From IMG/VR virus record IMGVR_UViG_3300042868_009047: a stretch of 64,000 nt of DNA; one strand, 5' to 3'. This DNA is from a virus (taxonomy: Duplodnaviria > Caudoviricetes). Below, one piece after another: positions 28,886-46,378 of this stretch. A model generated the notes under the pieces. The model made no database searches. It worked only from the letters and a program-made list of their open reading frames with translations, and was not told the DNA's origin. The number at the start of each line of letters is the position of its first letter. The first letter of the stretch is position 1. A program made the translations under genes and the position numbers.

Positions 28886-29713
28886 ATGTTATTAAAAGTA
28901 GGTTCAAAAGGAGATGATGTAAAAAAACTCCAAGCGAAATTAGGTACAAGCCCAGACGGAAGTTTTGGCCCTGGTACAGAAAAATTAGTCAAAGAATGGC
29001 AAACTAAAAACGGGTTAACAGCTGACGGTATTGTTGGTGATGGAACTTGGGCAAAAATGGGTTTGAACGAAGGTTCAGTACCAGCTGCTGCACCTGTAGC
29101 TATTCCAGCATCTAGCTTTAAGTTAGAGGCATTAAAAGGTCACGTTCCTGATGCGGTTATTGCTCAGATCCCTGACACAGCAGCTAAATTTGGTATTACA
29201 AACACTTTAAGATTAGCCCATTTCTTAGCGCAATGCGGTCACGAATCAGGTGGTTTTAAAGCTGTAAAAGAAAATTTAAATTATAGTGCTGATGGTCTTA
29301 AAAAAATATTCCCAAAATATTTTCCTGGTAATATAAGTGAGTCTTATTCACGCCAACCAGAAAAGATTGCTAATCGTGTTTATTCATCTCGTATGGGTAA
29401 TGGTGATGAGGCATCTGGTGAAGGTTTCAAATTTTGTGGTAGAGGTTATATCCAATTAACTGGTAAATCAAACTATACAGCGTTTGATAAAATGGTTGAG
29501 GAAAACATCTTACAAAACCCAGAGTTAGTGGCAACTAAATATCCTTTAGCTTCAGCAGCATTCTTTTTTAACTCAAATAACCTATGGTCTATTTGTGATA
29601 AAGGCGCTGACACAGCAACCGTTACAGCTGTAACGAAGAGAGTTAATGGTGGTACAATAGGTCTTGACGATCGTATTAAACACTTTAATGAATTCTATAA
29701 CTTATTGAAATAA
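28886..29713 (+). CDS. Endolysin: N-terminal peptidoglycan-binding domain plus GH19 catalytic domain
   Basis: LKVGSKGDDVKKLQ..DGSFGPGT..WQ..GLTADGIVG (PG_binding_1); AHFLAQCGHESGGF, ENLNYS, GRGYIQLTG, RVNGGTIGLDDR (GH19). Confidence 0.9.
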   Translation: MLLKVGSKGDDVKKLQAKLGTSPDGSFGPGTEKLVKEWQTKNGLTADGIVGDGTWAKMGLNEGSVPAAAPVAIPASSFKLEALKGHVPDAVIAQIPDTAAKFGITNTLRLAHFLAQCGHESGGFKAVKENLNYSADGLKKIFPKYFPGNISESYSRQPEKIANRVYSSRMGNGDEASGEGFKFCGRGYIQLTGKSNYTAFDKMVEENILQNPELVATKYPLASAAFFFNSNNLWSICDKGADTATVTAVTKRVNGGTIGLDDRIKHFNEFYNLLK

Positions 29714-29719
29714 CTTATC

Positions 29720-29923
29720 ATGGCTTTACCTTGCCCAAATTGTCATACTCCTCTAGGCATTAGTTTAGACTTTATTATTAAAAATCCTTTATCGGTATGT
29801 CCGACATGTCAAACCGTGTTTAATTTTGCGGTAAATGACGAAATTATCAAAACTTTTAGGGAAACTTTAAATGAAATAGAGGATATAAAAAAACAATATA
29901 AGGGTATGGTTAAATTCGGGTAA
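29720..29923 (+). CDS. Small zinc-ribbon protein
   Basis: CPNC...CPTC. Confidence 0.65.
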   Translation: MALPCPNCHTPLGISLDFIIKNPLSVCPTCQTVFNFAVNDEIIKTFRETLNEIEDIKKQYKGMVKFG

Positions 29924-29966
29924 TTATCTATAAACAAAAAAATAAAAACAAAAAAAAAACAAAATT

Positions 29967-30566
29967 ATGGCAGCAGACATTTCCGCTCAATTTACAGGTC
30001 TTCCTATTGAAGATCTGATCGTGTCACCTATCGTTGGTATGGCGAAGGGACAAGCAAAATTAAACGATGTAACATGGAAGTACATCAACGAAGTTGCATT
30101 CCAAACAGATAAAGACGGTAATACAACAGCTCGTTCTTTAGACGTTCAAATGCAAAGAGTTATGACCGATCCTACAGATGGAACTCAATCAGTTAAAACT
30201 TTATATTCTAAAGTTGCGATGTTACCTTTGGTTCCACTTCCAGCGTTAGCTATCACATCAGCTGATATCGCTTTTACTATGGAAGTTAAAACATCTGAGG
30301 TAGACAAAACATCAGAAGATAAAAGCGGTAGCTTTAGTGCTAGTGCAACTGGTGGATTCTGGGGTATGAAATATTCAGTTAATATGTCTGGTAGTGTTGC
30401 AACTCACAAAGAGAACACAAGAAGTACAGATAATTCAGCTAAATATGAAGTAAAAGTACACGCAGAACAATTGCCACCAACAGAAGGTATGTTGAAATTA
30501 TCGGATTACCTAACACAAATGTTAGAACCGACTACAATCGCACCATCTGTTAACGCAAACGCTTAA
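29967..30566 (+). CDS. DUF2589-like protein (long member)
   Basis: FTGLPIEDLIVSP, AKGQAKL, VAMLPLVPLPALAITSADIAFTMEVK, SAKYEVKVHAEQ..EGMLKL. Confidence 0.75.
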   Translation: MAADISAQFTGLPIEDLIVSPIVGMAKGQAKLNDVTWKYINEVAFQTDKDGNTTARSLDVQMQRVMTDPTDGTQSVKTLYSKVAMLPLVPLPALAITSADIAFTMEVKTSEVDKTSEDKSGSFSASATGGFWGMKYSVNMSGSVATHKENTRSTDNSAKYEVKVHAEQLPPTEGMLKLSDYLTQMLEPTTIAPSVNANA

Positions 30567-30625
30567 TACCAATAACTTGACTTTATGAAAAAATTTTACT
30601 ACTTTTGTATAAAATTACAACATAT

Positions 30626-31108
30626 ATGTCAAGATTAAATATTGAGGAGTTAGTAGGTGGGCTTTTAGAGGCCGCAATGGTTTCTCAGGGTATAAGTGAA
30701 AGACAGCATATTAATGCTCTCAGAAACTACTTTAATGAAGATGGTACACCCAAACTTCAAACCTTTGTAATAGGGGATAAAACTTTGGATGTACCGCTTT
30801 ATATTTTAGCTGATCACTCGTCTATTGGTTTAGATGAATTAGATATTGAATTTGAAGCTAGACTTATTTTTGGGGATGGTAAGGGTGAGGTATCTGATCT
30901 TAAAAAATCTTTACTAGGTCTTTTTAAAAAGAAGGGGTATCAACACAATATTAAAGGTATTGAAGTTGATTCTGGTAAAAATACCGATAGATCTGGTATG
31001 GCTAAAATAAAAGTAAAATTTAAAGCGGATGAGAAACCTGAAGCTGTTAGTAGATTAGTAGATTCCTATATCCAAAAAATGACAGGAACTGGCACTAAAA
31101 AAAATTAA
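30626..31108 (+). CDS. DUF2589-like protein (short member)
   Basis: LDVPLYILADHSSIGLDELDIEFEA...KVKFK..PEAVSRL. Own -7 element TACTTTTG at 30600-30607, so start moved to MSRLNIEE. Confidence 0.65.
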   Translation: MSRLNIEELVGGLLEAAMVSQGISERQHINALRNYFNEDGTPKLQTFVIGDKTLDVPLYILADHSSIGLDELDIEFEARLIFGDGKGEVSDLKKSLLGLFKKKGYQHNIKGIEVDSGKNTDRSGMAKIKVKFKADEKPEAVSRLVDSYIQKMTGTGTKKN

Positions 31109-31146
31109 TAAAATAAAATAAACAAAAAACTAAAAAAACAATTAAA

Positions 31147-31401
31147 ATGGCATTTGTAAAAAATTTAAACGGAAAAGCTGTAGTATGTGAGTATGAAGAT
31201 GGTGCACAATTAGTACCAGAAACTGGTTATATTGCTGCTATCGTTCAAAATGACGGGATTCAGTTCTATGGCGCTAGTGATGACGCTGGTATTATCGCTA
31301 TTGGATCAACAGCTAACGGAAGCGCAGTTGAGACATTGGCTGAGGCTAAAACGGCTATCGCTACTTTAGGTACACTATTCTTAGATGGTACAGCTATCTA
31401 A
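31147..31401 (+). CDS. Hypothetical protein
   Basis: ORF track; A-rich leader; followed by a terminator. Confidence 0.6.
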   Translation: MAFVKNLNGKAVVCEYEDGAQLVPETGYIAAIVQNDGIQFYGASDDAGIIAIGSTANGSAVETLAEAKTAIATLGTLFLDGTAI

Positions 31402-31420
31402 TTAAAAACTAAAAAAAAAT

Positions 31421-31451
31421 AAAAGGCTTGGTTTTTACCAGGCCTTTTTTA
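31421..31451 (+). terminator. Intrinsic terminator
   Basis: GGCTTGGT/ACCAGGCC hairpin plus T-tract. Confidence 0.75.
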
Positions 31452-31461
31452 TTATTGTATT

Positions 31462-31662
31462 ATGGGTTTTAATAAAAGATATGTTGATAGTGGTAAAATT
31501 TTAATATATAAAGATAGGTTGGAAGACCTCTTTACTAATAAAATAGATGCGTTTATATTTAGTGATAATTTCTCAAAAGAAATATTTGATTTATATGAAG
31601 AAAAAGAATTTGATTTAATTAGGAATCGAATACTTGAATATGAGGCTAAATCTTTGATCTAA
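31462..31662 (+). CDS. Small hypothetical protein (MGFNKRY...)
   Basis: ORF track; 3' end overlaps the convergent gene. Confidence 0.55.
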   Translation: MGFNKRYVDSGKILIYKDRLEDLFTNKIDAFIFSDNFSKEIFDLYEEKEFDLIRNRILEYEAKSLI

Positions 31663-32352
31663 AGGTTGTATATTTTTATTTAATTCAGAACTAATTGTTG
31701 ATAAATAACCCTCGTAAACAAAGCCAATTGATGTTGTTTTAGCTATGGATTTGGTTATTGATAAATTATAATTACCAACAGTATTTCTCGCCCATATTAA
31801 ATCATTAGTTGACGCAACAGCTGGTTGTATTAAAACATTATTTTCAATAGTAATATCTTTAACTTTATATTTTAAACTGTGTCTGTAAGAAGCTCTCTTA
31901 CTACCGAACCAAAGTTTTGATATCTCTGATCTATCATACACATAAGCGAGTGATACACTACCGCCCAATTTATTTGTCTTAAAAGATTTTTTAACACCTA
32001 TACCACCTGAAACACTTAAATCTAAATTTTTAACCAGCGAATGCTCTACTGTTGAGAATAAAATAGCGCTGTAATTATTTTTAATCTCTTTCCAGGAAAA
32101 TATGTTTAACCTAGCGTCTTCAGATTGTTTAATAAACTCATTATTTTTTTGACCATAAAATAAAAAATAATACGGGTTTAAACTAACACCAATATCCTTT
32201 TTTTTATTATTAAGTTCATAACTCATTTTAGACGTTATCTGAACGTTTTTATTGTTTCCTGTAAGTAATACCCCACCTAAGTCAAAACTCTTTATTTGGG
32301 CCTCTAAATGGCCAAAAACGCATATTAATAGTGCTGTTATAAAATATTTCAT
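31615..32352 (-). CDS. Putative outer-membrane beta-barrel protein (DUF481-like)
   Basis: Signal peptide ending HLEA-Q; GGVLLTGN start; many alternating amphipathic strands. Confidence 0.55.
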   Translation of the reverse strand: MKYFITALLICVFGHLEAQIKSFDLGGVLLTGNNKNVQITSKMSYELNNKKKDIGVSLNPYYFLFYGQKNNEFIKQSEDARLNIFSWKEIKNNYSAILFSTVEHSLVKNLDLSVSGGIGVKKSFKTNKLGGSVSLAYVYDRSEISKLWFGSKRASYRHSLKYKVKDITIENNVLIQPAVASTNDLIWARNTVGNYNLSITKSIAKTTSIGFVYEGYLSTISSELNKNIQPLDQRFSLIFKYSIPN

Positions 32353-32353
32353 A

Positions 32354-32842
32354 TTATAATTTACTTATCGCATCAATTATAGCCTTTTTCATCGCAATAC
32401 CTATTGATGATTTACTAAAAGGAACTTTCCCTTCTTTTAATTCAATAAAGGCGTAACTAGCGGTTGTAGCTGACTCACCAATACCATCGACAATTGTGTC
32501 ACCAAAATGAACTTTTAGTAATATTTGTGTCGTTTCCGTTGCCGCACCAATACCAGCAATTCTAAAAGTGGTTGATGGTGTACCAACTCTAATGATTTCA
32601 ACCATAACTGGTATGGTGTTTTTTTCACATAACGAATACTTTTCGGATAAGACTTCTTCAGTGATTTGTTTAACACCAAATAAGATATTTCTATCTTTAA
32701 ATTCTTTTATTTTCATTGTGCTGTAAACTGAATCTACACTAACACAAATTTGAGGGAACACTGAGATCGGTTCACTGGTTTGAGAAAATGCTGAATTTGA
32801 TACTGTGAGTATAAAAATTAGCGTAAAAATAAACTGTTTCAT
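32354..32842 (-). CDS. Exported protein, possibly a short CsgG/TolB-N-like alpha/beta fold
   Basis: Signal peptide ending SAFS-Q; GVKQITEEVL...GIGESAT...FSKSSIGIAMKKA parallels motifs in the 36730 protein. Confidence 0.5.
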   Translation of the reverse strand: MKQFIFTLIFILTVSNSAFSQTSEPISVFPQICVSVDSVYSTMKIKEFKDRNILFGVKQITEEVLSEKYSLCEKNTIPVMVEIIRVGTPSTTFRIAGIGAATETTQILLKVHFGDTIVDGIGESATTASYAFIELKEGKVPFSKSSIGIAMKKAIIDAISKL

Positions 32843-32848
32843 AATTTT

Positions 32849-35131
32849 TTATTGTTTGTAACCTGTTCTTATTATATAAATATTTGTTGCTCCGTTTAAC
32901 ACTAAAGCGTCAAATGTTAATGATTGCGCCCCTGAATAAGTTGGGACTAAATTTGTATTTGATATGTTAATTACCGACCATTGAGCTGAGGTAAATAACC
33001 TGTACGTTGGTATTGTAAATAACCAACTGTTTAAATTAATTTTATAGTAGATTAAATAAACATCTGTTATTGTTAAAATATTATTATTATTAACATCCAT
33101 CCTATAGTAATCTTTAGCGTTAAAAGATTGTGTTAAAACTTTTTGGTTAAAAAAGTTAATATCTGTTATTGTTGGACTTGATAACGGTGCATTGTCAATT
33201 GTTAATCTATAATCATTTAAACTTGAACTGGCTGTCGTTGTTATTGTATATTTACCAGTTGCATCGGTTGTATATGAACTATATAAACTATAGGTTGAAG
33301 AAGTTTTTTGTTTATAAAATAGTTTTACAGTGACGTTTGATACACCTACATTCTCAGCGTTATAAACATAACCTGAGTAAGTAAATGGACCCACTATTAT
33401 CATACCAGAAGCTGAGTAAGCGTATCCACACGAACCACTCTGTAACTGTGCTCTAAATAATGTACCATCCGTCTGATTAGTGTAATTATAAGTTGCCGCT
33501 GTATTAACTATATCGGTCCAAGTAACCCCACTGTTTGTTGACCTTTGCCATTTCACAACCGTACCAGTGTAACCACTTAGTGTTAAAGTCCCAGAGTTTG
33601 TTGACGTTGCATGCGTTGCTGATGAAACCGAACCACCTGTTGGTGGCGTACCTGTTGTAACAGTAATTAATTTACTTGTTGAATAAACAGCACTACCGCA
33701 GTTTGGTGTTTGCACCTCAACACGATAATAATAACTACCTGATGATGATATTGTTTCAGTTAAAGATGTTGTTGTATTTGTTACATCAGTCCAGTTTATA
33801 TTATTTGTAGATCGTTGCCATTTATTAACACTACCTTGTTGGCCAGATAAAGTTAATTCAGCGACCCCACCAGAACATATTGTATTGTTTGCCGCAAACA
33901 CAGACCCAGAAAGAGTTGGTTTTACGGATAAAAATATACTCGATGATGCTAATGAGTTACAACTAACAGGGCTCGTTGAATTTACAATTGCACGGTAATA
34001 AGTTGTTTTTGTTATATTTGAGATTGTTATACTTGATGATGTACTTGTAATTGTCGTACCAGCAGTAAAAAAGTTATCAAATGAAGACTCCCATCTAACA
34101 ACACTACCAGTCATATTGTTAAGTGTCAATGTTGTACTATTTGAACCAGAACAAACATTTATATTACCACCACTGATTGTGCCAGAAGAACCATTACTAA
34201 TCGTAAGATCCCTTGTAAAAATGGTTATGCTTGATGTTAAATCACCTGGCATGTCCCCGTATTCACAAATATAGCCACCTAATGTACTGTTAGCTAAATC
34301 ATTCCATTGCCCATTATTTGATGAATAGAATTGTCCAAACGCTTCTGAGGTACCGTTAGGTTCACCACCAGCCCATTTATGATACATACCTGATACTAAG
34401 GTTGTGCTTGGTGTATTCCCATTTGAAAAGTTTTGGCCTTTTTCAGGACCAGTTACCCAATGCCATTTACCTTCAGATGCAGCTTGGTTAGCGTAAACAG
34501 TTGAACCCTTTGCGGTGTTGATATAACCGTAGTCATCTGAAGCTCCAAACCAAGCATCACTCGACATTAATTTCCAGATAAAGTTGTTCTCCGCTTCAGA
34601 TAATATTGTCGCCAAATAACCAGCCCTACCAAAATAAGATTTAGCTGTTGATACATTATATGCGTTTGTCCAGCTCGTACTACCCGCAACATATTCATAA
34701 AAATGTGATGTTAATGGGTTATAATAAACTGTACCAGCAACAAAAGTAACCCTTCTAAGATTTGCGTAACAAGTTGTTGTTGTTGATTTAAAAGTTACCG
34801 TTCTTAAGAGAGTCTGCCAGTTAGCCGCTGTTGTTGTACCGTTAAAACTTAAAACACCTGTTGTTGAGTTCCAACTTGCCGTTACACCGCTCGGTAAAGT
34901 CCCTGTGTAAGTTAGGACATCCCCAGTGATATATGTTTGTGATATTTGAACCCTAAAACCTGTTATATTACCATTTGCAGTTATTGTTAAATTAGGGTCA
35001 ACAACAGTAGCTGTATTATAAGTTGCGGATAAACTTGATGAGGTACCGCCTAATGTAACAGATGTTGCCTGTGCGTTTAGTTTTACCGCACTTAAGACAA
35101 TCACCAAGAACACAAAAAACTTTTTCATCAT
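32849..35131 (-). CDS. Exported adhesin: Ig-like domain, C-type-lectin-like domain, three Ig-like repeats, B-domain and dockerin-like module
   Basis: Signal peptide ending KLNA-Q. Lectin motifs SWTNA..GYLATILSEAENNFI..W.G..EGKWHW..WAGGEPN..WNDL..YICEYG. Three GxVxxW(Q/E)xS repeats. DYYRMDVNNNNILTITDV (EF-hand/dockerin-like). No T9SS tail. Confidence 0.7.
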   Translation of the reverse strand: MMKKFFVFLVIVLSAVKLNAQATSVTLGGTSSSLSATYNTATVVDPNLTITANGNITGFRVQISQTYITGDVLTYTGTLPSGVTASWNSTTGVLSFNGTTTAANWQTLLRTVTFKSTTTTCYANLRRVTFVAGTVYYNPLTSHFYEYVAGSTSWTNAYNVSTAKSYFGRAGYLATILSEAENNFIWKLMSSDAWFGASDDYGYINTAKGSTVYANQAASEGKWHWVTGPEKGQNFSNGNTPSTTLVSGMYHKWAGGEPNGTSEAFGQFYSSNNGQWNDLANSTLGGYICEYGDMPGDLTSSITIFTRDLTISNGSSGTISGGNINVCSGSNSTTLTLNNMTGSVVRWESSFDNFFTAGTTITSTSSSITISNITKTTYYRAIVNSTSPVSCNSLASSSIFLSVKPTLSGSVFAANNTICSGGVAELTLSGQQGSVNKWQRSTNNINWTDVTNTTTSLTETISSSGSYYYRVEVQTPNCGSAVYSTSKLITVTTGTPPTGGSVSSATHATSTNSGTLTLSGYTGTVVKWQRSTNSGVTWTDIVNTAATYNYTNQTDGTLFRAQLQSGSCGYAYSASGMIIVGPFTYSGYVYNAENVGVSNVTVKLFYKQKTSSTYSLYSSYTTDATGKYTITTTASSSLNDYRLTIDNAPLSSPTITDINFFNQKVLTQSFNAKDYYRMDVNNNNILTITDVYLIYYKINLNSWLFTIPTYRLFTSAQWSVINISNTNLVPTYSGAQSLTFDALVLNGATNIYIIRTGYKQ

Positions 35132-36723
35132 AATGCCAATCTTGTACCAATCATTACCGTATAGTTTAATACGTTATCACCAATAGAATAAGCACCACCA
35201 AAATTAAAATTTAATTTAAATGTTTTTGTAACACCCAAGTTCATACCAACAATTGGTAAAATAACAAATGGTGATTTTAACACCGCATCATCATAATACC
35301 TAACAAACGGTGCATAAACAAATAAAGCCATTGTTTTAATATCAATACGTTTACCCACTTTAAAATCTCTATTACCACCCACAATTGCAGCGGAACCATA
35401 ATAGGATTCTTTATATATTTGTCCAGCTGAGGCTGTAAGCATATAAACAGCTTTAAATTTTTTAATACTTCTCATCTGCCCAAAAGCAATAGTGTTATAC
35501 ATAGACCCACTACCAGTAAAACCAATTGTAACCGTATTAGAAAGTAACGTAATAGCCTTACGATTTATCCAGGCATAATAACCAGTGATATTACCACCTT
35601 GTATTGAAGATGTGTAATCAACCATAACGCCATGTGATCTTAGACCATCATATCTTACTGATGAGTAACCCGCATTAACTTTTGAACCTTTACTAACCTC
35701 ACCTTCATTAAATTGAAAACCAACTAAATCACTACTCATGAGTATAGATGGTCTACCACCGTTTTTACTTGTAGCTGAGCCTTTGCTATTGCTACTACTA
35801 CCACTTTTTACTGCATTAGTTGTCCCACCTACAGCATCCGATTTTTTATCCGAACCACCATCTGTTTGATTTGGTGTAGAACCATTACCAGTCCCGCCAC
35901 CAGAACCTGAGCCGCTTGTGGTGGTACCACCTGAGCCACCAGAACCGTTGTTAGTGGTTCCACCTGACGCACCAGACCCACCAGGATTGTTGTTGGTTGC
36001 ACCACTTGACTCTCCAGTTTTTTCACCTGATCCAGTGGTTCCACCTGAAGCGCCTGATCCAGTTGTTCCACCTGACGCACTTGATCCACCAGCCTGTTCG
36101 CCTGATCCACTTGACCCAGTTGATCCACCTGAAGCACCTGATCCAGTGGTTCCACCTGATCCACTCGACCCATTCGAACCATTATTATTTTCAGTATTAT
36201 TAGAACTACCATTACTTCCGCTACCAGAACCACCAGAAGTTGTTGATCCACTAGAATTGTCCCCATTTTTATTTTCTTTTTTATTGTCAGAAGGTTTGGA
36301 ATCACCTTTACCACCACCAACATTATTTACAGACCCAGCAGCCGCCATTATATTACCCGTACCACTAGATGCCATATCACTAATAGCTGATAAAGCCCCA
36401 AATATACTAATAACATTTAAAGCAGTGCTTTGTGTTTGTGATACAGTAACAGCTGTTCCTATACTACCGCATGGCGAAGCGTTCTTATATTGATTAAAAA
36501 CACCAGCGGCCCAGTTATCGAACGCACCGTTATTAAAATCATTAGCTGTAAACGTATTTACTTGACCGTAGTACGTTACAGCTATTTGATTTTGCCCGTA
36601 AGGAATTGATAAATTGTAAACCTTGCCATTGCAAGGATCGGTGTAAGAATAGTTAAATGTCTGCGCAGTTGTTATATTGCACAGCAAAGATAAAAAAATA
36701 ACTATAAGGAATTTTATTCTCAC
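35128..36723 (-). CDS. Exported protein: N-terminal domain, long Ser/Gly/Thr linker, C-terminal putative beta-barrel
   Basis: Signal peptide ending TTA-Q; about 180-aa low-complexity linker; amphipathic strands ending GTRLAL. Confidence 0.6.
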   Translation of the reverse strand: MRIKFLIVIFLSLLCNITTAQTFNYSYTDPCNGKVYNLSIPYGQNQIAVTYYGQVNTFTANDFNNGAFDNWAAGVFNQYKNASPCGSIGTAVTVSQTQSTALNVISIFGALSAISDMASSGTGNIMAAAGSVNNVGGGKGDSKPSDNKKENKNGDNSSGSTTSGGSGSGSNGSSNNTENNNGSNGSSGSGGTTGSGASGGSTGSSGSGEQAGGSSASGGTTGSGASGGTTGSGEKTGESSGATNNNPGGSGASGGTTNNGSGGSGGTTTSGSGSGGGTGNGSTPNQTDGGSDKKSDAVGGTTNAVKSGSSSNSKGSATSKNGGRPSILMSSDLVGFQFNEGEVSKGSKVNAGYSSVRYDGLRSHGVMVDYTSSIQGGNITGYYAWINRKAITLLSNTVTIGFTGSGSMYNTIAFGQMRSIKKFKAVYMLTASAGQIYKESYYGSAAIVGGNRDFKVGKRIDIKTMALFVYAPFVRYYDDAVLKSPFVILPIVGMNLGVTKTFKLNFNFGGAYSIGDNVLNYTVMIGTRLAL

Positions 36724-36729
36724 GCACCT

Positions 36730-37449
36730 TTAATTCTTGAATAAACCTTTTTTAATTAATTTTACAACAAGTCTAGATGACGCAGTTTCTAACGCCTTTT
36801 TAGTTGATGTTCCTATTGTTGATTGATTAAATTTGATTTCATCCACATCATCTAGAATTGTTGACATTTTTACTGTTTTTGCTTCACCTAAACCAGAACC
36901 AACAATAACTTCACCAGTTTCAGCGTCAACAAATTTAACTTGCATACCTAATCTGGTTGTTTGTGTTGCAGTAGCTTTACCACTAACCTTAACAACTTCA
37001 TCCTCAGATACACTAAAATCATAAACCTCAATGTAAACAAAGTATTTAGCTAATTTAATTTTACCTCTACCATCAACTTTGTTTTCTGTAAAACCTTTAT
37101 CAGATGCTTTAAATTGATTAACCATTCTTTCTTTAATCTCTAATTTATCTTCAGTGAAGACAAACCTATTAGTCATTTCAAGAAATTCGATTACAATATT
37201 AGTTACACCCAAACCAACCCTTTTATCTTTTAATTCAGGGTACATTTCATAAAGTTCTTCGGTAAACCCAATTTTTAATAATTGGATAGGATATTTGATT
37301 GTGTCGGTATAGTTTGAAACAACATCAATTGATTGAGTCTGTTCAAAACTAGCTTTATATTCTTCGGTTTTAACACTACCAATATTCTGTGCCTGAGTTT
37401 TACAAGCACAGAATAATATTGGTAATATAATGAATAATAATTTTTTCAT
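36730..37449 (-). CDS. CsgG/HfaB-family protein
   Basis: GLGVTNIVIEFLEMTNRF, YFVYIEVYDF, RLGMQVKFVDAETGEV, STIGTSTKKALE. Start moved to MKKLLF. Confidence 0.7.
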   Translation of the reverse strand: MKKLLFIILPILFCACKTQAQNIGSVKTEEYKASFEQTQSIDVVSNYTDTIKYPIQLLKIGFTEELYEMYPELKDKRVGLGVTNIVIEFLEMTNRFVFTEDKLEIKERMVNQFKASDKGFTENKVDGRGKIKLAKYFVYIEVYDFSVSEDEVVKVSGKATATQTTRLGMQVKFVDAETGEVIVGSGLGEAKTVKMSTILDDVDEIKFNQSTIGTSTKKALETASSRLVVKLIKKGLFKN

Positions 37450-37450
37450 A

Positions 37451-37843
37451 TTAAACTTCTGTTGTATTCGATAAAGATACACCGTCTTCTTCGTCAACTT
37501 TTTGGATTAACATTTTGTCCCTATCTTCTGAGTTGAACCAGTAGTCAACAACCTTATTTAAATTACCAACAAAGGCACCTAATAAAATTAATAACATTTC
37601 TTTCCAATCCTCACCAATAGATGCACCTAAAAATACAGCTGCGTTGATACCAACAATGATTAATGTGAACAATCCTAATACAATTGCTGTTATTCTCCAT
37701 CTATTAGCTTGCATTTGTTGCAACATGTAATAGAATCTATTTTTATCTTCTACCTGCACAGGGGCTGGTGTACTAACCATATTTTTTAAAGTTTCTTTAA
37801 GTTTCATATCTTCTTCGTTTGTTTTATTTATTTTCTTTTTCAT
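37451..37843 (-). CDS. Two-TM membrane protein
   Basis: Hydrophobic segments ITAIVLGLFTLIIVGINAAVFLG and MLLILLGAFVG; TAATG coupling to the upstream gene. Confidence 0.6.
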   Translation of the reverse strand: MKKKINKTNEEDMKLKETLKNMVSTPAPVQVEDKNRFYYMLQQMQANRWRITAIVLGLFTLIIVGINAAVFLGASIGEDWKEMLLILLGAFVGNLNKVVDYWFNSEDRDKMLIQKVDEEDGVSLSNTTEV

Positions 37844-38172
37844 TACCAAGGACTATCTTCAGTTTCTGATTTTTTAGCTGGTTTTTCTTCTTTAACTGGT
37901 GCAGCTTTTTCAACCACAGTTGTTTTTTCTTTAATGATTGTGTTAGTACCACCACCAGCATTATTTTTAGAAGAGTTATCGACACTTATGTTGATTGCTG
38001 GCGCTGGAGCCGCTTGTTCTGTCTTTGTTTCTTCTTTATCACCACCACCAAATAAAGTTGTGGTAAAGTAAGTACCACCAGCCATAACAGCTGTTGAAAT
38101 GATACCAATTATTGTTTTCTTTAAACCTGACCATGTTCCGTCTGATTCAGGTACGTTTGTTTCTTCTGACAT
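37843..38172 (-). CDS. Single-TM membrane protein
   Basis: IIGIISTAVMAGGTYF helix followed by a low-complexity tail. Confidence 0.6.
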   Translation of the reverse strand: MSEETNVPESDGTWSGLKKTIIGIISTAVMAGGTYFTTTLFGGGDKEETKTEQAAPAPAINISVDNSSKNNAGGGTNTIIKEKTTVVEKAAPVKEEKPAKKSETEDSPW

Positions 38173-38184
38173 TTTTTTTAAATT

Positions 38185-40083
38185 TTAATTTAGTTTTATT
38201 GTTTTATTTGTTTTGGTTTGAGATCCTGTTTGTAAAACACCGTAATATGTACCAGGTGTAACGTTAGTTAAGTCAACTGGATAAAGGTACTTACCTTCAT
38301 ACATTTTACCACTAAAAACCGTGTATACTAATTTTCCGTTTACATCATAAAAACCAACGGTTATCTCACCATCTTCAGGTACGCTAAAACTCACAAGAGC
38401 CAAACCTTCTGTTGGGTTAGGGCATACCATTATTTCACAATCTTTTGTTAATACACCACCACCATTTATTCTGAATATTTTAACAACACCATTTGTTGGT
38501 GTTATTCTTAAATCGGTTGCGTTTGCATCACCAGCATATTTTCTAATAACATATAAAGGACTATTGTTCCAGCTTGTTTGTGGTGATAGTGCTGTGAATT
38601 GTAAAGTTAAAATATTATCACCATCATTAGCTAAATATTTATTATTACTCATATCAGCACCAGCCCATTCAATAACACCGTTGTTAGGGTTTAAGAATGA
38701 CATCCAGTTCATAAATTTTTCTTCAGTTTTAATACCCTTGAACTCCAATAAAGTTTTGTCATAAGCTAAAGCTAATTGAGCTGAACCAACTTGATTACCA
38801 TAAGTTAAAACTTTCATTGGTACGTTTACTAAACTACCTTCAGTGATTTCGATTTTTGGTAAATTAATTTCGATTGTTGATGTAGGGAAATCATACTCAA
38901 CAGTTTCGTCAATAATATATTTAGGAGTTTTGCTTGGGTTTAAAATTTCAATAGGGATTGTACGAGCCATGTTGAATCCAGTACCGTTAGCATCACCACC
39001 ACCTAATACATAATACGTTACTGAGTCTGGTTGACCAGCAATGATATCAAATGTTAGGTTAGTTACACCAGCAATTGATGAGGTATAGTTAGTTGAAGAA
39101 CCGTTGATGGTTCCATATTGTGAAACTGTGAAGAATCTTACATCTTGTACAGAGTTTGGCCATACAGAGAATCTACCCGCTAAACGACCATAGATAGCTG
39201 ATACGTCAGCGATTGTAATACTATTTGATCCGTTAACGTCTGAAGCGTAATAATCAAACCCAGTTGGTGTCATTTCGCCAAGAATATATTTGTTAACTCT
39301 TTGTGCATCAGCAACAGATACCGTGTTACCAACACCCATTGTATCACCCTTAACATATAAATGAGCATCCCAATAAGTTGTATCCAAGATTTCATCAAAA
39401 GCGAAATAACCAGTAAGATCTGTTGTGTCAAGCTTTACTTGAGTCCAAGCACCACTTGATGTCTTAGGTCTTTTCTCAAGAGCAACTGTAATGTTCTTAG
39501 AACCAGAACCTGTTACGTTTGTGAATCTACCGTGGTATTTCAATCTATTCATCTTAAATTCACCACCATAACTGTGTAAAGATAACGTTGTATCCATACC
39601 AGCAATTGTTGAGGCATAAGATGGAAATGTCAAAGTACCAGTTACCTTTAAACTATCAATACTTGTCAAAGCTTGGAAGGCTGTTGAGTTTTGATGGAAG
39701 AACTTTATTTGGAACGCAGTACCAGTAGAATATGTAAATGCGGTGTTTGTACCTGTGTAAGCCAATGTAACAGTAATATTACCGTTAACAGAATCGGCAA
39801 CATATTGCATGTACTGATCAGTAGAACTGTACTGTAAAGTTACAATTGGTTTTGCACCACCAAAAGCTACTTTGTCGTAAAATACACGAAACTGTAAACC
39901 AGCGATTTTAGTCGTTGTTGTGTTGTCATAATAAAGGTTAGCTAAAGTGTAACCTTGAGATTGCGGACCAACATTGTAAGAAGAGTCAACGATAACCCAA
40001 TTACCATTTGATGGTGCGGTTGTTTGTGCATAACCAATTACGGTTACAAACGCCAGCACTAGCGTTAAAAAGAAATTTTTCAT
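38185..40083 (-). CDS. T9SS-secreted protein: cohesin-like domain, B-domain, dockerin-like module, cohesin-like domain, T9SS type A sorting domain
   Basis: Signal peptide ending GYA-Q; AGLQFRVFYD and GSAQLALAYDKTLLEF (cohesin-like); YYASDVNGSNSITIADV (dockerin-like); C-terminus CPNPT...FYDVNGKLV...PGTYYGVL...KTIKLN. Confidence 0.8.
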   Translation of the reverse strand: MKNFFLTLVLAFVTVIGYAQTTAPSNGNWVIVDSSYNVGPQSQGYTLANLYYDNTTTTKIAGLQFRVFYDKVAFGGAKPIVTLQYSSTDQYMQYVADSVNGNITVTLAYTGTNTAFTYSTGTAFQIKFFHQNSTAFQALTSIDSLKVTGTLTFPSYASTIAGMDTTLSLHSYGGEFKMNRLKYHGRFTNVTGSGSKNITVALEKRPKTSSGAWTQVKLDTTDLTGYFAFDEILDTTYWDAHLYVKGDTMGVGNTVSVADAQRVNKYILGEMTPTGFDYYASDVNGSNSITIADVSAIYGRLAGRFSVWPNSVQDVRFFTVSQYGTINGSSTNYTSSIAGVTNLTFDIIAGQPDSVTYYVLGGGDANGTGFNMARTIPIEILNPSKTPKYIIDETVEYDFPTSTIEINLPKIEITEGSLVNVPMKVLTYGNQVGSAQLALAYDKTLLEFKGIKTEEKFMNWMSFLNPNNGVIEWAGADMSNNKYLANDGDNILTLQFTALSPQTSWNNSPLYVIRKYAGDANATDLRITPTNGVVKIFRINGGGVLTKDCEIMVCPNPTEGLALVSFSVPEDGEITVGFYDVNGKLVYTVFSGKMYEGKYLYPVDLTNVTPGTYYGVLQTGSQTKTNKTIKLN

Positions 40084-40212
40084 GTTTAGTTGTTTTGATT
40101 ACTTATAAATATAAAAAAAACTTAAAAAAACCATTTACTTTGAAAAAAAAAGTGTTAAACATGAAATAACTTTTGCAATAAATACGGATATTTATTGATT
40201 AAAAAATAGGGT

Positions 40213-40726: not shown

Positions 40727-40802
40727 CAGGATATGGGGGAGTCAGGTCGTCCCTACCTGCCTTGGACGCAGGGGATCGCTGGTTCGAATCCAGCTATCCT
40801 GA
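40727..40802 (+). tRNA. trnP: tRNA-Pro(TGG)
   Basis: CAGGATA/TATCCTG acceptor, CCTGC-CTTGGAC-GCAGG anticodon arm, GCTGG-TTCGAAT-CCAGC T arm. Confidence 0.9.
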
Positions 40803-40808
40803 CAAAAT

Positions 40809-40883
40809 GTCTTCGTAGCTCAGTTGGTTTAGAGCACCTCACTTTTAATGAGGGAGTCATGAGTTCGAATCTCATCGGGGACA
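40809..40883 (+). tRNA. trnK: tRNA-Lys(TTT)
   Basis: Full cloverleaf; CCTCA-CTTTTAA-TGAGG. Confidence 0.92.
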
Positions 40884-40888
40884 CAAAT

Positions 40889-40958
40889 GTATAAGTTGAT
40901 CGTGGTGGTCGGTTGGTCTGCAACACCAACGGTGTTGGTTCGATTCCAACCTTATACT
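40889..40958 (+). tRNA. trnC: tRNA-Cys(GCA) with shortened D-loop
   Basis: GTATAAG/CTTATAC acceptor, U73 discriminator, TTGGT-CTGCAAC-ACCAA; D-loop only about 5 nt. Confidence 0.75.
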
Positions 40959-40967
40959 CAAATACAC

Positions 40968-41040
40968 ACGTCTGTAGCTCAGTTGGTAGAGCACTGGTCT
41001 CCAAAACCAGGTGTCGTTGGTTCGAATCCAGCCAGGCGTG
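40968..41040 (+). tRNA. trnW: tRNA-Trp(CCA)
   Basis: CTGGT-CTCCAAA-ACCAG; G73. Confidence 0.92.
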
Positions 41041-41046
41041 CTAAAT

Positions 41047-41126
41047 GCCCTTGTAGGCGAATGGTATAGCCGCTGGTCTTAGAAACCAGAGCGAAAGCAT
41101 TGCAAGTTCGAGTCTTGCCAGGGGTA
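41047..41126 (+). tRNA. trnL: tRNA-Leu(TAG)
   Basis: CTGGT-CTTAGAA-ACCAG; long variable arm. Confidence 0.9.
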
Positions 41127-41131
41127 CACAT

Positions 41132-41204
41132 GCACCTTTAGCTCAGTTGGTAGAGCGCTGCCCTTACATGGCAGATGTCATAGGTTCGAGTCCTATAGGG
41201 TGTA
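41132..41204 (+). tRNA. trnV: tRNA-Val(TAC)
   Basis: CTGCC-CTTACAT-GGCAG; canonical D and T arms. Confidence 0.92.
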
Positions 41205-41207
41205 CAA

Positions 41208-41340
41208 AGGTTGATCGGGGAATGATCACATTAATAGTTCGAGAGTGAATACTGACTGGTGTGATCGGAGTTTGTAGGTATTCACCTAAGTAATGCCGAT
41301 CGTAAAAGAGGATGTCCACTAGACCATCTTCCTCTTTCCT
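41208..41340 (+). ncRNA. Candidate structured RNA of unknown class inside the tRNA array
   Basis: Pairings 41213-18/41296-301, 41245-52/41278-85, 41224-30/41260-66 (pseudoknot) and 41306-11/41331-36; no cloverleaf. Confidence 0.5.
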
Positions 41341-41345
41341 TACTT

Positions 41346-41427
41346 GCCAGTATCGCATAGCGGCAATTGCAGCGGATTGTAAACCCGCTCTCATTTGAGT
41401 TCGGTGGTTCGAGTCCACCTGCTGGCA
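41346..41427 (+). tRNA. trnY: tRNA-Tyr(GTA)
   Basis: GCGGA-TTGTAAA-CCCGC; long variable arm; GGTGG-TTCGAGT-CCACC. Confidence 0.88.
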
Positions 41428-41439
41428 CTATTTATTAGT

Positions 41440-41898
41440 ATGAGAAAACTAATAATAATCATAATGGTTTTATCCACAACGATTTGTAAATCACAAATTG
41501 TAATAGATAAAGCTGGGGATGGTTGGGATCTAAAAGCTGATAGCGCATTAGCGATTATTAAGCAAACAGATACCACAACTTATAAACTTGTGTTACAAGT
41601 TTGTGATAAAATAACTTTTTGGTCTGGTGGTTACTCAACAAATGAGGGTTCTAAAGATACAAAAGGAAGTATAATAATATCATCTACAGATGCTAAGGCT
41701 AAATCCTTAAATAATCTCGCTGCTGTTATTGTACACGAATCTTTACATCTTTATCTTAGACATAGGGGTATTCAAGAATCACCAAGAGAAGAAATACTTT
41801 GTTATTCATATGAGTATGACTTCTTAAGGAAAATACCTAATGTTGAACAGTATCTGTTGACCCATTGTTTAAAACAGATACGTCTTCGACAAAATTAA
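41440..41898 (+). CDS. Exported zincin-like (HEXXH) protein embedded in the tRNA array
   Basis: Signal peptide MRKLIIIIMVLSTTICKS-Q; VIVHESLHL...EEILC; TATTTAT at 41429-41435. Confidence 0.65.
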   Translation: MRKLIIIIMVLSTTICKSQIVIDKAGDGWDLKADSALAIIKQTDTTTYKLVLQVCDKITFWSGGYSTNEGSKDTKGSIIISSTDAKAKSLNNLAAVIVHESLHLYLRHRGIQESPREEILCYSYEYDFLRKIPNVEQYLLTHCLKQIRLRQN

Positions 41899-41899
41899 T

Positions 41900-41972
41900 G
41901 GGGTCATAGCTCAATTGGCTGAGCGCTACCCTTGCAAGGTAGAGGATGTGGGTTCAAGTCCCACTGGCTCCA
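41900..41972 (+). tRNA. trnA: tRNA-Ala(TGC)
   Basis: G3:U70 present; CTACC-CTTGCAA-GGTAG. Confidence 0.92.
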
Positions 41973-41978
41973 CTATAT

Positions 41979-42049
41979 TGTCCTGTGGTGTAAAGGCAGC
42001 ACATCTGGTTTTGATCCAGAGAATAGAGGTTCGAATCCTCTCAGGACAA
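41979..42049 (+). tRNA. trnQ: tRNA-Gln(TTG)
   Basis: TGTCCTG/CAGGACA; TCTGG-TTTTGAT-CCAGA. Confidence 0.9.
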
Positions 42050-42078
42050 CAACTATCTCGCCAGATTGGCGAGAAAAT

Positions 42079-42153
42079 GGCGAGATAGCTCAGAGGAAGA
42101 GCATTCGGCTCATATCCGAAAGGTCGGGATTTCGAAACTCCCTCTCGCTACCA
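42079..42153 (+). tRNA. trnM: tRNA with CAT anticodon (elongator Met; Ile2 not excluded), CCA encoded
   Basis: GGCGAGA/TCTCGCT; TTCGG-CTCATAT-CCGAA; ACCA end. Confidence 0.82.
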
Positions 42154-42158
42154 TACAT

Positions 42159-42232
42159 GGTGTCTGTAGCTCAATCGGGAGAGCATTGGTTTGTGGAACC
42201 AAAGGTAGTGGGATCGAAACCCATCAGTCACC
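42159..42232 (+). tRNA. trnH: tRNA-His(GTG)
   Basis: G-1:C73; TTGGT-TTGTGGA-ACCAA; T-loop ATCGAAA. Confidence 0.85.
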
Positions 42233-42238
42233 CAAAAT

Positions 42239-42312
42239 ACCTTCATAGCTCAATGGATTAGAGTATTTCAATACGAATGAAAGGGTTGGGAGTTCGAGTC
42301 TCTCTGAAGGTA
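42239..42312 (+). tRNA. trnR: tRNA-Arg(ACG)
   Basis: ACCTTCA/TGAAGGT; TTTCA-ATACGAA-TGAAA. Confidence 0.88.
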
Positions 42313-42372
42313 CAATAAACCTGTTTTTGCTACGATAAAGCAACCTACTTTATTGTGCAAAATCTAATTTAT

Positions 42373-42446
42373 CGTCCTGTAGCTCAGTTGGTTAGAGCAT
42401 TTTCCTGATACGAAAAAGGCCGCTGGTTCGAATCCAGCTAGGACGA
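42373..42446 (+). tRNA. trnI: tRNA-Ile(GAT)
   Basis: TTTTC-CTGATAC-GAAAA; GCTGG-TTCGAAT-CCAGC. Confidence 0.9.
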
Positions 42447-42512
42447 CTTAACATTTAAATTACCAGTACCGTCTTTTTTTCATTTATAAAAGTATTTATA
42501 ATAAACGCTTTT

Positions 42513-44713: not shown

Positions 44714-46378
44714 TTATAATCCGTATTTTGATTTATCCGCATTAAAGTTTTGTAATACTTGTGCTGAGGTAAGCGCTGCGTTGTATAAACGAGTTATACC
44801 AATTTTTCCATCAAAGTATTGAGAGTATTCCCCACCATTATAACTACCTATGTAAAGTGGGTTAGTTGAGTTTAATATACTTGGTAAACTATGACTTACA
44901 CTTCCTATACTTACACCATTTACAAATGTTTCAAGTGTATTAGATGCGACATTAGTAAACACATAAACTATCTGATACCAAGTACCAATCGTTCCAACGT
45001 AGTTTGTACTATTAACAAACAATGATGAACCACTACCACTACCTGAACCCAATTGAGCGTAGTATGTAGTATTGGTTGTTCTGATACTATAACTTACATC
45101 TATAGTTAACCCCCCATTATCAAACTTTCCAAGAACAACATCATTACCTAAAACTGCTTGATTCACCCATACTTCCATAGTCCAATCCCCACTTCCAGGC
45201 TCTAATAATACATTATCCGCAATTGCTATTTGTGATGAAGAACCATTATATGTAAAGTATGGTGATGTATATGTGATATTGGACATTGTACCATTCAAAC
45301 CATTACCTGATAAATCATTAATTGTCGTACCTGTTCCAGGGTAACTTGATAAATTACTTGGGTCATAATATAACCTAAGGTTACTTGTTACAGGTGCCAC
45401 AAATCTTGGGGCCAAATAATTGTATTGTTGTGTTATTTCTCCTAACGTTAATTTCCTATTATAAAAATATAAATTCGCTATGTATCCAAATGGTTGTCCT
45501 GCGGTGACATTATTACCCCATTCTAGATGAGTATCTCCACCCGCACCATAAGCAACCGTTCCAACCTGAGTTCCGTTAATATAAAAAATACTTGATGTAT
45601 CATCTCCGACTACCGCATATTGTACCCACACATCTTCATCTGGTGTAACATCATACCCCGAATCTCGGAATACGGAATCATAGTAACCCAAATTATCAGT
45701 TGCAACTTCAACTAAAAGTGGAACACTATTGTTGGTTCTAAGTAAAGATCTCCAATTAGCAGAACTTGAAATGATTCTTGCCCAAGTAATATATGTGTAT
45801 CCCGAAGTTGGTAAGGTAGGACCAGTTCCATCCACGACAACTCTTTTAGTTCCTGTTGTGCAATCAAAACATTTAATTCCATCAAGCACGGTATATGTAG
45901 CTCCCGTTAAAGTATGGTTATACGAACCACTTTGTAAATTAAATACCGTTGTTCCTGAACCTGGGTAACTATCGGTTTCATTAGCGTCTAATTGCATAAT
46001 AAGTCCCGAAGTTACGAGATTTGGTGTATTAATCAAATAATATTTGTTACTAGCGTTAACCCAGATTACAGCAGCCGCAACCGTATTCAACAAAGCCATA
46101 CCACGTCTGTCGTTTAATTTGTTTACTATCGCTAAAAAATCAGCATCACTGCTAGCCACCCAAAATAAAGGTTTTGCGTTACCTTGCGTGCTAAACCCAA
46201 GCTCATATGAGTTGGAAATCATAACATAATCATTGCTATGTGTGGGTGAGTTATACCAAGTTAAACCACCAGTATTCACCCTATAGTCATTAGCAACCGT
46301 ACCAACTTCATGGTTACCATATTTGGTACCATAAGCTGTTACTGTTCCACTATTATATGCTACGACTTTATTGGCCAT
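44714..46378 (-). CDS. Virion-type protein: shared N-terminal domain plus two LamG/concanavalin-A-like domains
   Basis: LDANETDSYPGSGTT and YDPSNLSSYPGTGTT..DLSGNG; W.Q.V.V...FVNG; IGSYNG..FDGKIG..RLYN.AL...V.QNFNA. Confidence 0.8.
   Translation of the reverse strand: MANKVVAYNSGTVTAYGTKYGNHEVGTVANDYRVNTGGLTWYNSPTHSNDYVMISNSYELGFSTQGNAKPLFWVASSDADFLAIVNKLNDRRGMALLNTVAAAVIWVNASNKYYLINTPNLVTSGLIMQLDANETDSYPGSGTTVFNLQSGSYNHTLTGATYTVLDGIKCFDCTTGTKRVVVDGTGPTLPTSGYTYITWARIISSSANWRSLLRTNNSVPLLVEVATDNLGYYDSVFRDSGYDVTPDEDVWVQYAVVGDDTSSIFYINGTQVGTVAYGAGGDTHLEWGNNVTAGQPFGYIANLYFYNRKLTLGEITQQYNYLAPRFVAPVTSNLRLYYDPSNLSSYPGTGTTINDLSGNGLNGTMSNITYTSPYFTYNGSSSQIAIADNVLLEPGSGDWTMEVWVNQAVLGNDVVLGKFDNGGLTIDVSYSIRTTNTTYYAQLGSGSGSGSSLFVNSTNYVGTIGTWYQIVYVFTNVASNTLETFVNGVSIGSVSHSLPSILNSTNPLYIGSYNGGEYSQYFDGKIGITRLYNAALTSAQVLQNFNADKSKYGL

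Follow-up and report, generated by a model that had tools for sequence, protein, structure and literature searches.

The closest described relatives of the locus reported here are the csgG/csgF ('curli') clusters of pelagimyophages (HTVC008M group) and of the methylophage Melnitz, for which sibling capture, uptake and the timing of lysis have been proposed as roles (PMC7029224, PMC9004378). Our locus is a block of eight genes at positions 31615-40083 of a 64,000-nucleotide stretch of Caudoviricetes DNA (IMG/VR record IMGVR_UViG_3300042868_009047; this whole stretch is called the window below), and it is a phage-encoded envelope module built around a CsgG-family protein. Like the pelagimyophage and Melnitz clusters it belongs to lytic aquatic phages and combines a CsgG-family outer-membrane lipoprotein with other exported proteins in a small operon lacking curlin subunits. 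In those clusters, however, CsgG and CsgF are close to their proteobacterial counterparts, whereas the CsgG-like product described here (gene 4) has diverged beyond the reach of a direct Pfam match and no CsgF was found among the block proteins. The block also adds a cohesin/dockerin protein addressed to the type IX secretion system (T9SS), a lectin with a swappable head, a tethered 12-strand barrel predicted from a structural model, and a putative mini-zincin peptidase, and its hosts would be Bacteroidota. According to the initial annotation no described phage system is alike; the csgG/csgF precedent weakens this claim, while our literature searches found no paper describing a block of this make-up.

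Two further systems help to place the block. Phage surface-conversion and superinfection-exclusion lipoproteins such as T5 Llp are single small proteins that alter the surface of the infected cell, each acting on one receptor. The block would likewise be a phage-made change of the envelope, but one spread over eight or nine genes that include a scaffold, a lectin and a barrel. The second is the CipA X-module-dockerin/type II cohesin pair of the cellulosome (PDB 2b59), which it resembles in that a cohesin sits on a surface-targeted protein and a beta-sandwich followed by a calcium-loop module ends a carbohydrate-binding protein. In contrast to the cellulosome, the anchor would be a T9SS tail instead of SLH, the system is phage-encoded and carries lectins and no enzymes, its dockerin call is sub-threshold and its pairing is a prediction.

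Organization of the block, its CsgG-like pair and its predicted barrels

All eight open reading frames (ORFs) lie on the minus strand and are numbered from the upstream end. With the likely ATG starts, the junctions from gene 1 to gene 8 measure 12 nt, a 1-nt overlap, 1 nt, 6 nt, a 4-nt overlap, 6 nt and 1 nt, a spacing that, judged from the sequence, points to an operon with translational coupling. The AT-rich motif TATATTTATA (40104-40113, minus strand) can be read directly 20 nt ahead of the first ATG, with TATTTATA at 40104-40111; it is possibly a Bacteroidota -7 box (TAnnTTTG-like), an unverified promoter guess. A scan for consensus sigma-70 promoters around the block gave matches at the level expected by chance in this AT-rich DNA. 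Export signals were judged by eye from the translations, without a signal-peptide predictor. By this reading six of the eight products have a hydrophobic leader at the N-terminus and then Ala-Gln, as is common at cleavage sites in Bacteroidota, and all eight carry either a signal peptide or a membrane helix. The initial annotation had described eight tightly coupled minus-strand genes behind a single TATTTATA motif, with a signal peptide or membrane helix in every product, and it proved accurate on each of these points.

Gene 4 (P0004, 36730-37449; ATG start at 37449, about 239 aa) encodes a lipoprotein-like product with a Cys in a lipobox-like position, where the family consensus is Gly-Cys. 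It has no significant direct match to Pfam CsgG (PF03783), but among 38 aligned relatives 14 match this family (best E 1.9e-17) and seven match LpoB. An AlphaFold2 (AF2) model, with a predicted local distance difference test score (pLDDT) of 80 and long predicted hairpins, found the CsgG structures 4uv2, 4uv3 and 6l7a as its best Foldseek matches (E 1.6e-8, template modelling score 0.51-0.57 over some 230 columns), followed by PelC, FlgT and GNA1162. A CsgG fold and membership in the CsgG/LpoB superfamily are thus supported, by the model together with the matches of the relatives. The protein had been annotated as a CsgG-like pore, of which the fold and the transitive homology stand; the long hairpin expected to cross the membrane is polar and charged, and so the fold is supported while a CsgG-type membrane pore is not. 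The shorter relative proposed at the same time turned out to be a true paralogue of gene 4, namely gene 7 (P0007, 162 aa; 32354-32842), a compact secreted protein without the helical insert (BLASTP E 2e-7; hhalign 97.8%, E 9.5e-13 over 115 columns). Sequence searches of the PDB with P0004 and with profiles of gene 4, gene 7 and the mini-zincin gave chance matches only.

The product of gene 5 (P0005, 531 aa; 35128-36723) consists of a signal peptide, a small N-terminal domain with two invariant Cys, a Gly/Ser/Thr/Asn-rich linker of about 200 disordered residues whose length differs among relatives, and a C-terminal barrel, as read from alignments, AF2, Foldseek and a lead from a language-model Atlas look-up. 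The barrel is modelled with 12 strands at residues 326-530 (pLDDT 80-90), and its Foldseek matches are the autotransporter beta-domains of EstA, EspP, NalP and BrkA (E 4e-7 to 5e-6), NanC/KdgM, FapF and intimin. On the strength of this model we are confident that the C-terminus is a true 12-strand outer-membrane barrel behind a disordered tether. The order of signal peptide, small N-terminal domain, long linker and C-terminal 12-strand barrel recalls type Va autotransporters and FapF. Unlike type Va autotransporters, gene 5 has no Pfam autotransporter match and no pore helix predicted ahead of the barrel, and it combines a small disulfide-bonded N-terminal domain with its disordered linker. 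A likeness of the mature N-terminus to the CsgF plug motif, noticed by eye, was discarded after profile searches of PDB chains and Pfam gave no CsgF.

Gene 8 (P0008, 245 aa; 31615-32352), a secreted, DUF481-like putative outer-membrane barrel, is confined to near relatives and one other group of the viral loci described below. Its match to DUF481 (PF04338) is below threshold (13.9 bits against 21.1, E 0.054), and its nearest Atlas clusters are also DUF481 (score 0.97), which we take as a lead only. Of the two putative barrels first proposed, that of gene 5 is therefore upheld as a 12-strand barrel, and that of gene 8 is putative. The 3' end of gene 8 is overlapped over 48 nt by a plus-strand ORF of 66 aa (31462-31662), itself a candidate gene.

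The adjacency of a CsgG-like protein and a disordered one raises the question of whether the block could work as a curli-like (type VIII) export system, in which the gene 4 channel would secrete a disordered substrate, either the Gly/Ser/Thr-rich stretch of gene 5 or the lectin encoded by gene 6, for fibres on the cell. The CsgG fold and family link of gene 4 speak for this, as do the start of gene 5 only 6 nt after gene 4, the roughly 200 disordered residues that it encodes, the resemblance of its barrel to FapF, the amyloid exporter of Pseudomonas, and the published precedent (PMC7029224, PMC9004378). We nevertheless regard it as quite unlikely: no CsgA-, CsgB-, CsgE- or CsgF-like protein was detected in the block and the profile of the gene 5 N-terminal domain gave no CsgF, the linker is of low complexity and does not consist of curlin repeats, the predicted hairpin of gene 4 is polar, and a 12-strand barrel is a generic fold.

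The cohesin protein and the lectin

In the product of the first gene (P0001, 632 aa; 38185-40083) the signal peptide precedes an N-terminal domain that is possibly cohesin-like, a beta-sandwich with a dockerin-like module (about residues 180-350), a cohesin (405-536) and, at the C-terminus, a sorting domain of T9SS type A (555-629). The cohesin passes its Pfam cut-off (PF00963, 33.7 bits against 24.1), and the sorting domain passes those of both Pfam (Por_Secre_tail, PF18962, 30 bits against 27) and NCBIfam (TIGR04183, 29.2 against 23). Both domains were found in all 20 diverse homologues examined, with a best Cohesin E-value of 8e-13. Judging by these profiles gene 1 is a T9SS cargo bearing a cohesin, and the T9SS sorting domain that the initial annotation had seen in the first protein is secure by both curated thresholds and in every homologue. 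With its signal peptide and a C-terminal domain of about 75 aa it looks like other T9SS type A cargo (Por_Secre_tail, TIGR04183), from which it differs in being virus-borne. No T9SS parts are encoded among the window proteins as far as these were tested, so that export of gene 1 would rely on the machine of the host.

Two cohesin-like domains had been assigned to this protein. The C-terminal one is significant, but the N-terminal one has no sequence support: the N-terminal 160 aa or so show no similarity to the protein's own C-terminal cohesin by BLASTP or hhalign and have no PDB profile match. In the Atlas look-up the nearest named clusters of this domain do carry Cohesin (score 0.92), again only a lead. 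The cultured Flavobacterium phage vB_FspM_immuto (160 kb) has the same block with the gene order preserved (gp013-gp019), and its gp015 retains the cohesin and the T9SS tail (34.6 bits for the tail). Gene 1 is split between its dockerin-like and cohesin-tail parts in two loci, by a frame change in immuto (L001, NC_055915, 11598-13422) and by an in-frame stop in a second locus (L026, 7243-9135); recoding, decay or sequencing error may underlie the split.

The lectin protein is encoded by gene 6 (P0006, 760 aa; 32849-35131) and comprises a signal peptide, a C-type-lectin-like domain (about residues 143-291), three immunoglobulin (Ig)-like repeats and a beta-sandwich with dockerin-like tail (575-760), with no T9SS tail. 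Its C-terminal 186 aa are paralogous to residues 170-350 of gene 1 (BLASTP E 1e-13), in agreement with the earlier observation that the two proteins share a B-domain and dockerin-like module. One canonical Asp-x-Asn-x-Asp/Asn...Asp calcium-loop pattern is conserved in this tail, where D105, N107 and D116 vary little or not at all; the first repeat is degenerate. The best PDB match of the tail profile is the CipA X-module-dockerin (E 0.0037). A check with the Dockerin profile, as recommended by the initial annotation, gave a divided answer, in which the calcium-loop pattern is kept but the Pfam threshold is missed: Dockerin_1 (PF00404) falls just short at residues 254-297 of gene 1 (20.2 bits against 22.9) and gives no Pfam match in this copy of gene 6, and sub-threshold matches occur in six of 20 gene 1 homologues and four of 20 gene 6 homologues.

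The head of gene 6 is variable. Lectin_C (PF00059) stays below threshold in this copy (19.8 bits against 22.6), but it is found in 13 of 20 homologues (best E 3.5e-17) and reaches 57 bits in gp013 of immuto, so that the lectin call, weak here, is clear in the relatives. The heads of these 20 also include Laminin_G_3 (six), PA14 (two), pentaxin, GEVED and Ig_7, and the tail remains constant. A swappable head on a constant tail would fit an adaptor that docks on a conserved partner, for which the cohesin of gene 1 is the obvious candidate. A complex prediction of this cohesin with the dockerin-like module of gene 6 and calcium scored 0.13, against a mark of 0.32, and counts neither way. No paralogues of gene 6 were found elsewhere in the window, for example among tail fibres. 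A separate protein of 554 aa (44714-46378, minus strand) carries two Laminin_G_3 (concanavalin-like lectin) domains, the type of domain that heads gene 6 in some related phages.

Conservation, hosts and occurrence in lakes

An IMG/VR scan with gene 4 yielded 202 confirmed matches, of which 80 loci on contigs of 4 to 434 kb were kept. The order 1-2-(3)-4-5-(6)-7 is preserved in all of them, and gene 4 remains 66-96% identical in loci where gene 1 has dropped to about 46%. A collection of 5.8 billion proteins (90% clusters) contains 5,650 relatives of gene 4 at E <=0.001, and their collapse to 233 clusters at 50% identity indicates a family that is abundant but narrow. Bacterial chromosomes offer a different picture. 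A close copy was found in only two of 185,579 species genomes, both on contigs of metagenome-assembled genomes and one of them with the whole block, in a scan that used a single protein and detects close relatives only. A sample of 300 Bacteroidota genomes yielded nothing closer than remote CsgG homologues, in 35 of them (at most 65 bits, compared with 276); the four that were inspected have genes of sigma-factor, MutS and ABC type as neighbours, and nothing of the block was seen around them. Synteny in viruses and near-absence from chromosomes together argue that the block is a phage module and not a recently captured host locus. The initial annotation had named intact capture from a host, or an unconserved gene order, as grounds for giving up its proposal; 80 syntenic loci and two genomes out of 185,579 point the other way.

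The flanks contain an endolysin, a deoxynucleoside monophosphate kinase, an L5 gp82-like protein, a UvrD-type helicase, a ClpB-like ATPase and virion proteins recognized by PHROGs, and by this gene content the window is phage DNA. Contigs as long as 208,802 bp encode an identical gene 3 protein, a length that fits a phage genome of about 200 kb. A DNA search of cultured phages gave no near match. Most likely the block belongs to large phages infecting T9SS-bearing Bacteroidota (Flavobacterium-type hosts). A 5,415-aa ORF elsewhere in the window (1827-18074, minus strand), which stands out by a G+C content of about 45% against about 32% for the remaining window, probably encodes a giant Ser/Thr/Gly-rich fibre.

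The block DNA is nearly whole in at least 18 lake-water metagenome runs from many studies, two of them possibly the source of the window itself, and two lake metatranscriptome runs (one study) have contigs about 94% identical to the window. One RNA-library contig (3.7 kb; 36401-40081) reaches from gene 1 through gene 4 into the start of gene 5, and others cover genes 8 and 7 and the endolysin. Summed RNA-contig depth in the two lake RNA libraries is highest at bins 29606-31408 (about 35-267), which contain two DUF2589 genes. The very uneven depth along 18 kb argues against plain carry-over of DNA, but it is unusable for ranking genes, and where genes 5 and 6 show gaps the relative may simply have diverged, so that silence need not be meant.

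These data bear on the idea that the block is a passenger of host origin without a role in infection, or else a set of virion parts. Its component families are indeed typical of Bacteroidota surface proteins, and phage fibres, too, contain lectin and Ig-like domains. We consider this very improbable, given that gene order and sequence are conserved over 80 diverse viral contigs, that no close chromosomal counterpart was found in the genomes scanned and that lake RNA-library contigs cover the block. Sec signals and the T9SS tail would moreover direct the proteins out of the cytoplasm, where virions are assembled, and there is no structural match in PHROGs, a search that gave no match for any block protein.

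Possible roles: surface display or lysis

A ninth gene belongs to the block as well, judging from its recurrence and its signature. In the window it is displaced to the plus strand at 41440-41898 (P0279 from residue 16, about 152 aa), between the genes for tRNA-Tyr and tRNA-Ala, whereas most other loci have it directly behind gene 7 or overlapping the end of that gene; a homologue is present in 54 of the 80 loci. It encodes a secreted mini-metallopeptidase with an invariant HESxH and a downstream EE, which by motif is a minimal zincin signature, and ten of 13 members have weak SprT-like matches. The surrounding array holds 13 tRNA genes (40727-42447, plus strand), for Pro, Lys, Cys, Trp, Leu, Val, Tyr, Ala, Gln, Met, His, Arg and Ile, and the displaced gene occupies a 470-nt gap in it.

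Two small membrane proteins complete the inventory. Gene 2 (P0002, 109 aa; 37843-38172) is present in most of the 80 loci and has no family match in Pfam, NCBIfam or PHROGs. With an acidic N-terminus, a conserved DGTWSGLKKT motif, one Gly-rich membrane helix and a tail rich in Pro, Ala, Glu and Lys, it is probably an inner-membrane protein with a periplasmic tail. Gene 3 (P0003, 37451-37843; ATG start at 37843, about 130 aa) has two predicted helices, one strongly hydrophobic and one weaker, and a charged C-terminal tail. It is the part of the block under the strongest sequence constraint (75-93% identity where gene 1 is at about 46%), and at the same time about one locus in three is without it or has a substitute, and the cultured phages, immuto included, lack it. 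None of its 2,539 relatives is informatively named, most being called 'hypothetical protein' or left unnamed. In some loci it has a C-terminal extension of 60-100 aa (L015, 9343-9993; L019, 9441-9992), which in the former is rich in Asp-Gly repeats resembling calcium-binding motifs.

Converging on the block from the plus strand is an endolysin without signal peptide (28886-29713; PG_binding_1 and GH19 in Pfam), whose operon is likely separated from the block by a bidirectional terminator, to judge from a 12-bp GC-containing hairpin flanked by A and T runs at 31421-31448. A homologue of this endolysin lies within the fetched flanks in 53 of the 80 loci, often directly before gene 1 or after the last block gene and on the same strand. 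No membrane protein lies beside the endolysin of the window, so the holin must be encoded elsewhere. Just after it, on the plus strand, come a 67-aa ORF (29720-29923) with two Cys-x-x-Cys pairs (zinc-ribbon-like), which lacks a membrane helix and does not qualify as a holin, and the two tandem DUF2589 genes (29967-31108).

The recurrent link to the endolysin, together with an endolysin that lacks both a signal peptide and an adjoining membrane protein, makes a role in lysis a serious rival and the leading one, in which the block would be a lysis or egress cassette and the envelope-breaching partner of the endolysin. Genes 2 and 3, the small membrane proteins nearest the endolysin, would serve as holin and antiholin or as the inner-membrane half of a spanin-like device, weakening or opening of the outer membrane would fall to the CsgG-like lipoprotein and the barrel, and the lectin and cohesin would be accessory. 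The adjacency in 53 loci, often abutting and on the same strand, supports it, and a role in timing has already been proposed in print for phage CsgG/CsgF (PMC9004378). On the whole we find it rather unlikely. About a third of the loci lack gene 3 or carry a replacement, and it is absent from immuto, where the endolysin is of a different type and lies 6 kb away. No block gene matches a holin or spanin family (for genes 2-4 none was found in Pfam, NCBIfam or PHROGs, and no relative of gene 3 is so named), gene 4, with about 220 aa and a CsgG fold, is unlike known o-spanins, and it is hard to see what lysis would gain from a T9SS-tagged cohesin or from a 760-aa lectin whose heads can be swapped.

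We tentatively favour, with slightly less than even confidence, a reading in which the block displays a lectin scaffold on the infected cell or on its debris. Sec would export all parts to the periplasm, where the host T9SS would recognize the tail of gene 1 and move the scaffold to the cell surface; Sec export of gene 1 followed by handover to the host T9SS is the best-supported step of this proposed mechanism, and the sorting tail is retained in all homologues examined. The gene 6 lectin would join the scaffold by its dockerin-like tail, possibly already in the periplasm because it has no T9SS tail of its own, and would travel bound to gene 1 or by another route. The barrel, the CsgG-like lipoprotein and its paralogue, the two small membrane proteins and the mini-zincin might, by their predicted location, provide anchoring in the outer membrane, passage through it or processing. 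The likely outcome would be an infected cell, or debris of it, bearing a multivalent lectin tuned to host-type glycans, which could attach it to neighbouring host cells ('sibling capture') or mask the phage receptor. The trans-envelope export and display apparatus proposed by the initial annotation is supported in part, namely in its T9SS cargo, the shared dockerin-like module, the CsgG-fold pair and a barrel, while union of the parts in one apparatus and docking of the lectin would be conjecture; the endolysin link and the ninth gene are additions to that annotation.

Several observations weigh against display. Gene 6, lacking a T9SS tail, has no known route across the outer membrane, and both the dockerin and the lectin calls are below Pfam threshold in this copy. 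A second cohesin in gene 1 was negative in BLASTP, hhalign and PDB profile searches, and as a result of the gene 1 split the cohesin-tail half may lack a signal peptide in immuto and L026. The hairpin of gene 4 that should cross the membrane is polar and charged, and searches of the block proteins in Pfam and NCBIfam found no CsgF, CsgE, CsgA/CsgB or curlin-like partner. The endolysin adjacency also fits a role in lysis, and the RNA evidence, consisting of contigs of one study, cannot show a single transcript, a start site or timing.

Surface display can also be spelled out in a bolder form that we hold to be unlikely as a whole: the phages would hijack the host T9SS for a self-assembling cohesin-dockerin coat, with the tail-less lectin riding out on the tagged scaffold to capture neighbours or hide receptors, and with a diverged CsgG ring and the tethered barrel as outer-membrane fittings. 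If true, such a hijack would represent a new class of virus-driven change of the host surface and the first piggyback export through the T9SS. The remaining share of probability is reserved for explanations not yet thought of.

Abundance, constraint, coverage by RNA contigs and experimental tractability make the block clearly interesting, and with the cultured phage immuto and its host Flavobacterium sp. LMO8 the display and lysis readings are both directly testable. Should lysis prove to be its role, the block would supply the missing outer-membrane lysis step in phages of Bacteroidota. Should surface display be true, phages of a major freshwater and marine phylum would reprogramme adhesion or receptor exposure by way of the T9SS of their hosts, with consequences for aggregation, for the formation of particles and for the transmission of phages in dilute waters.

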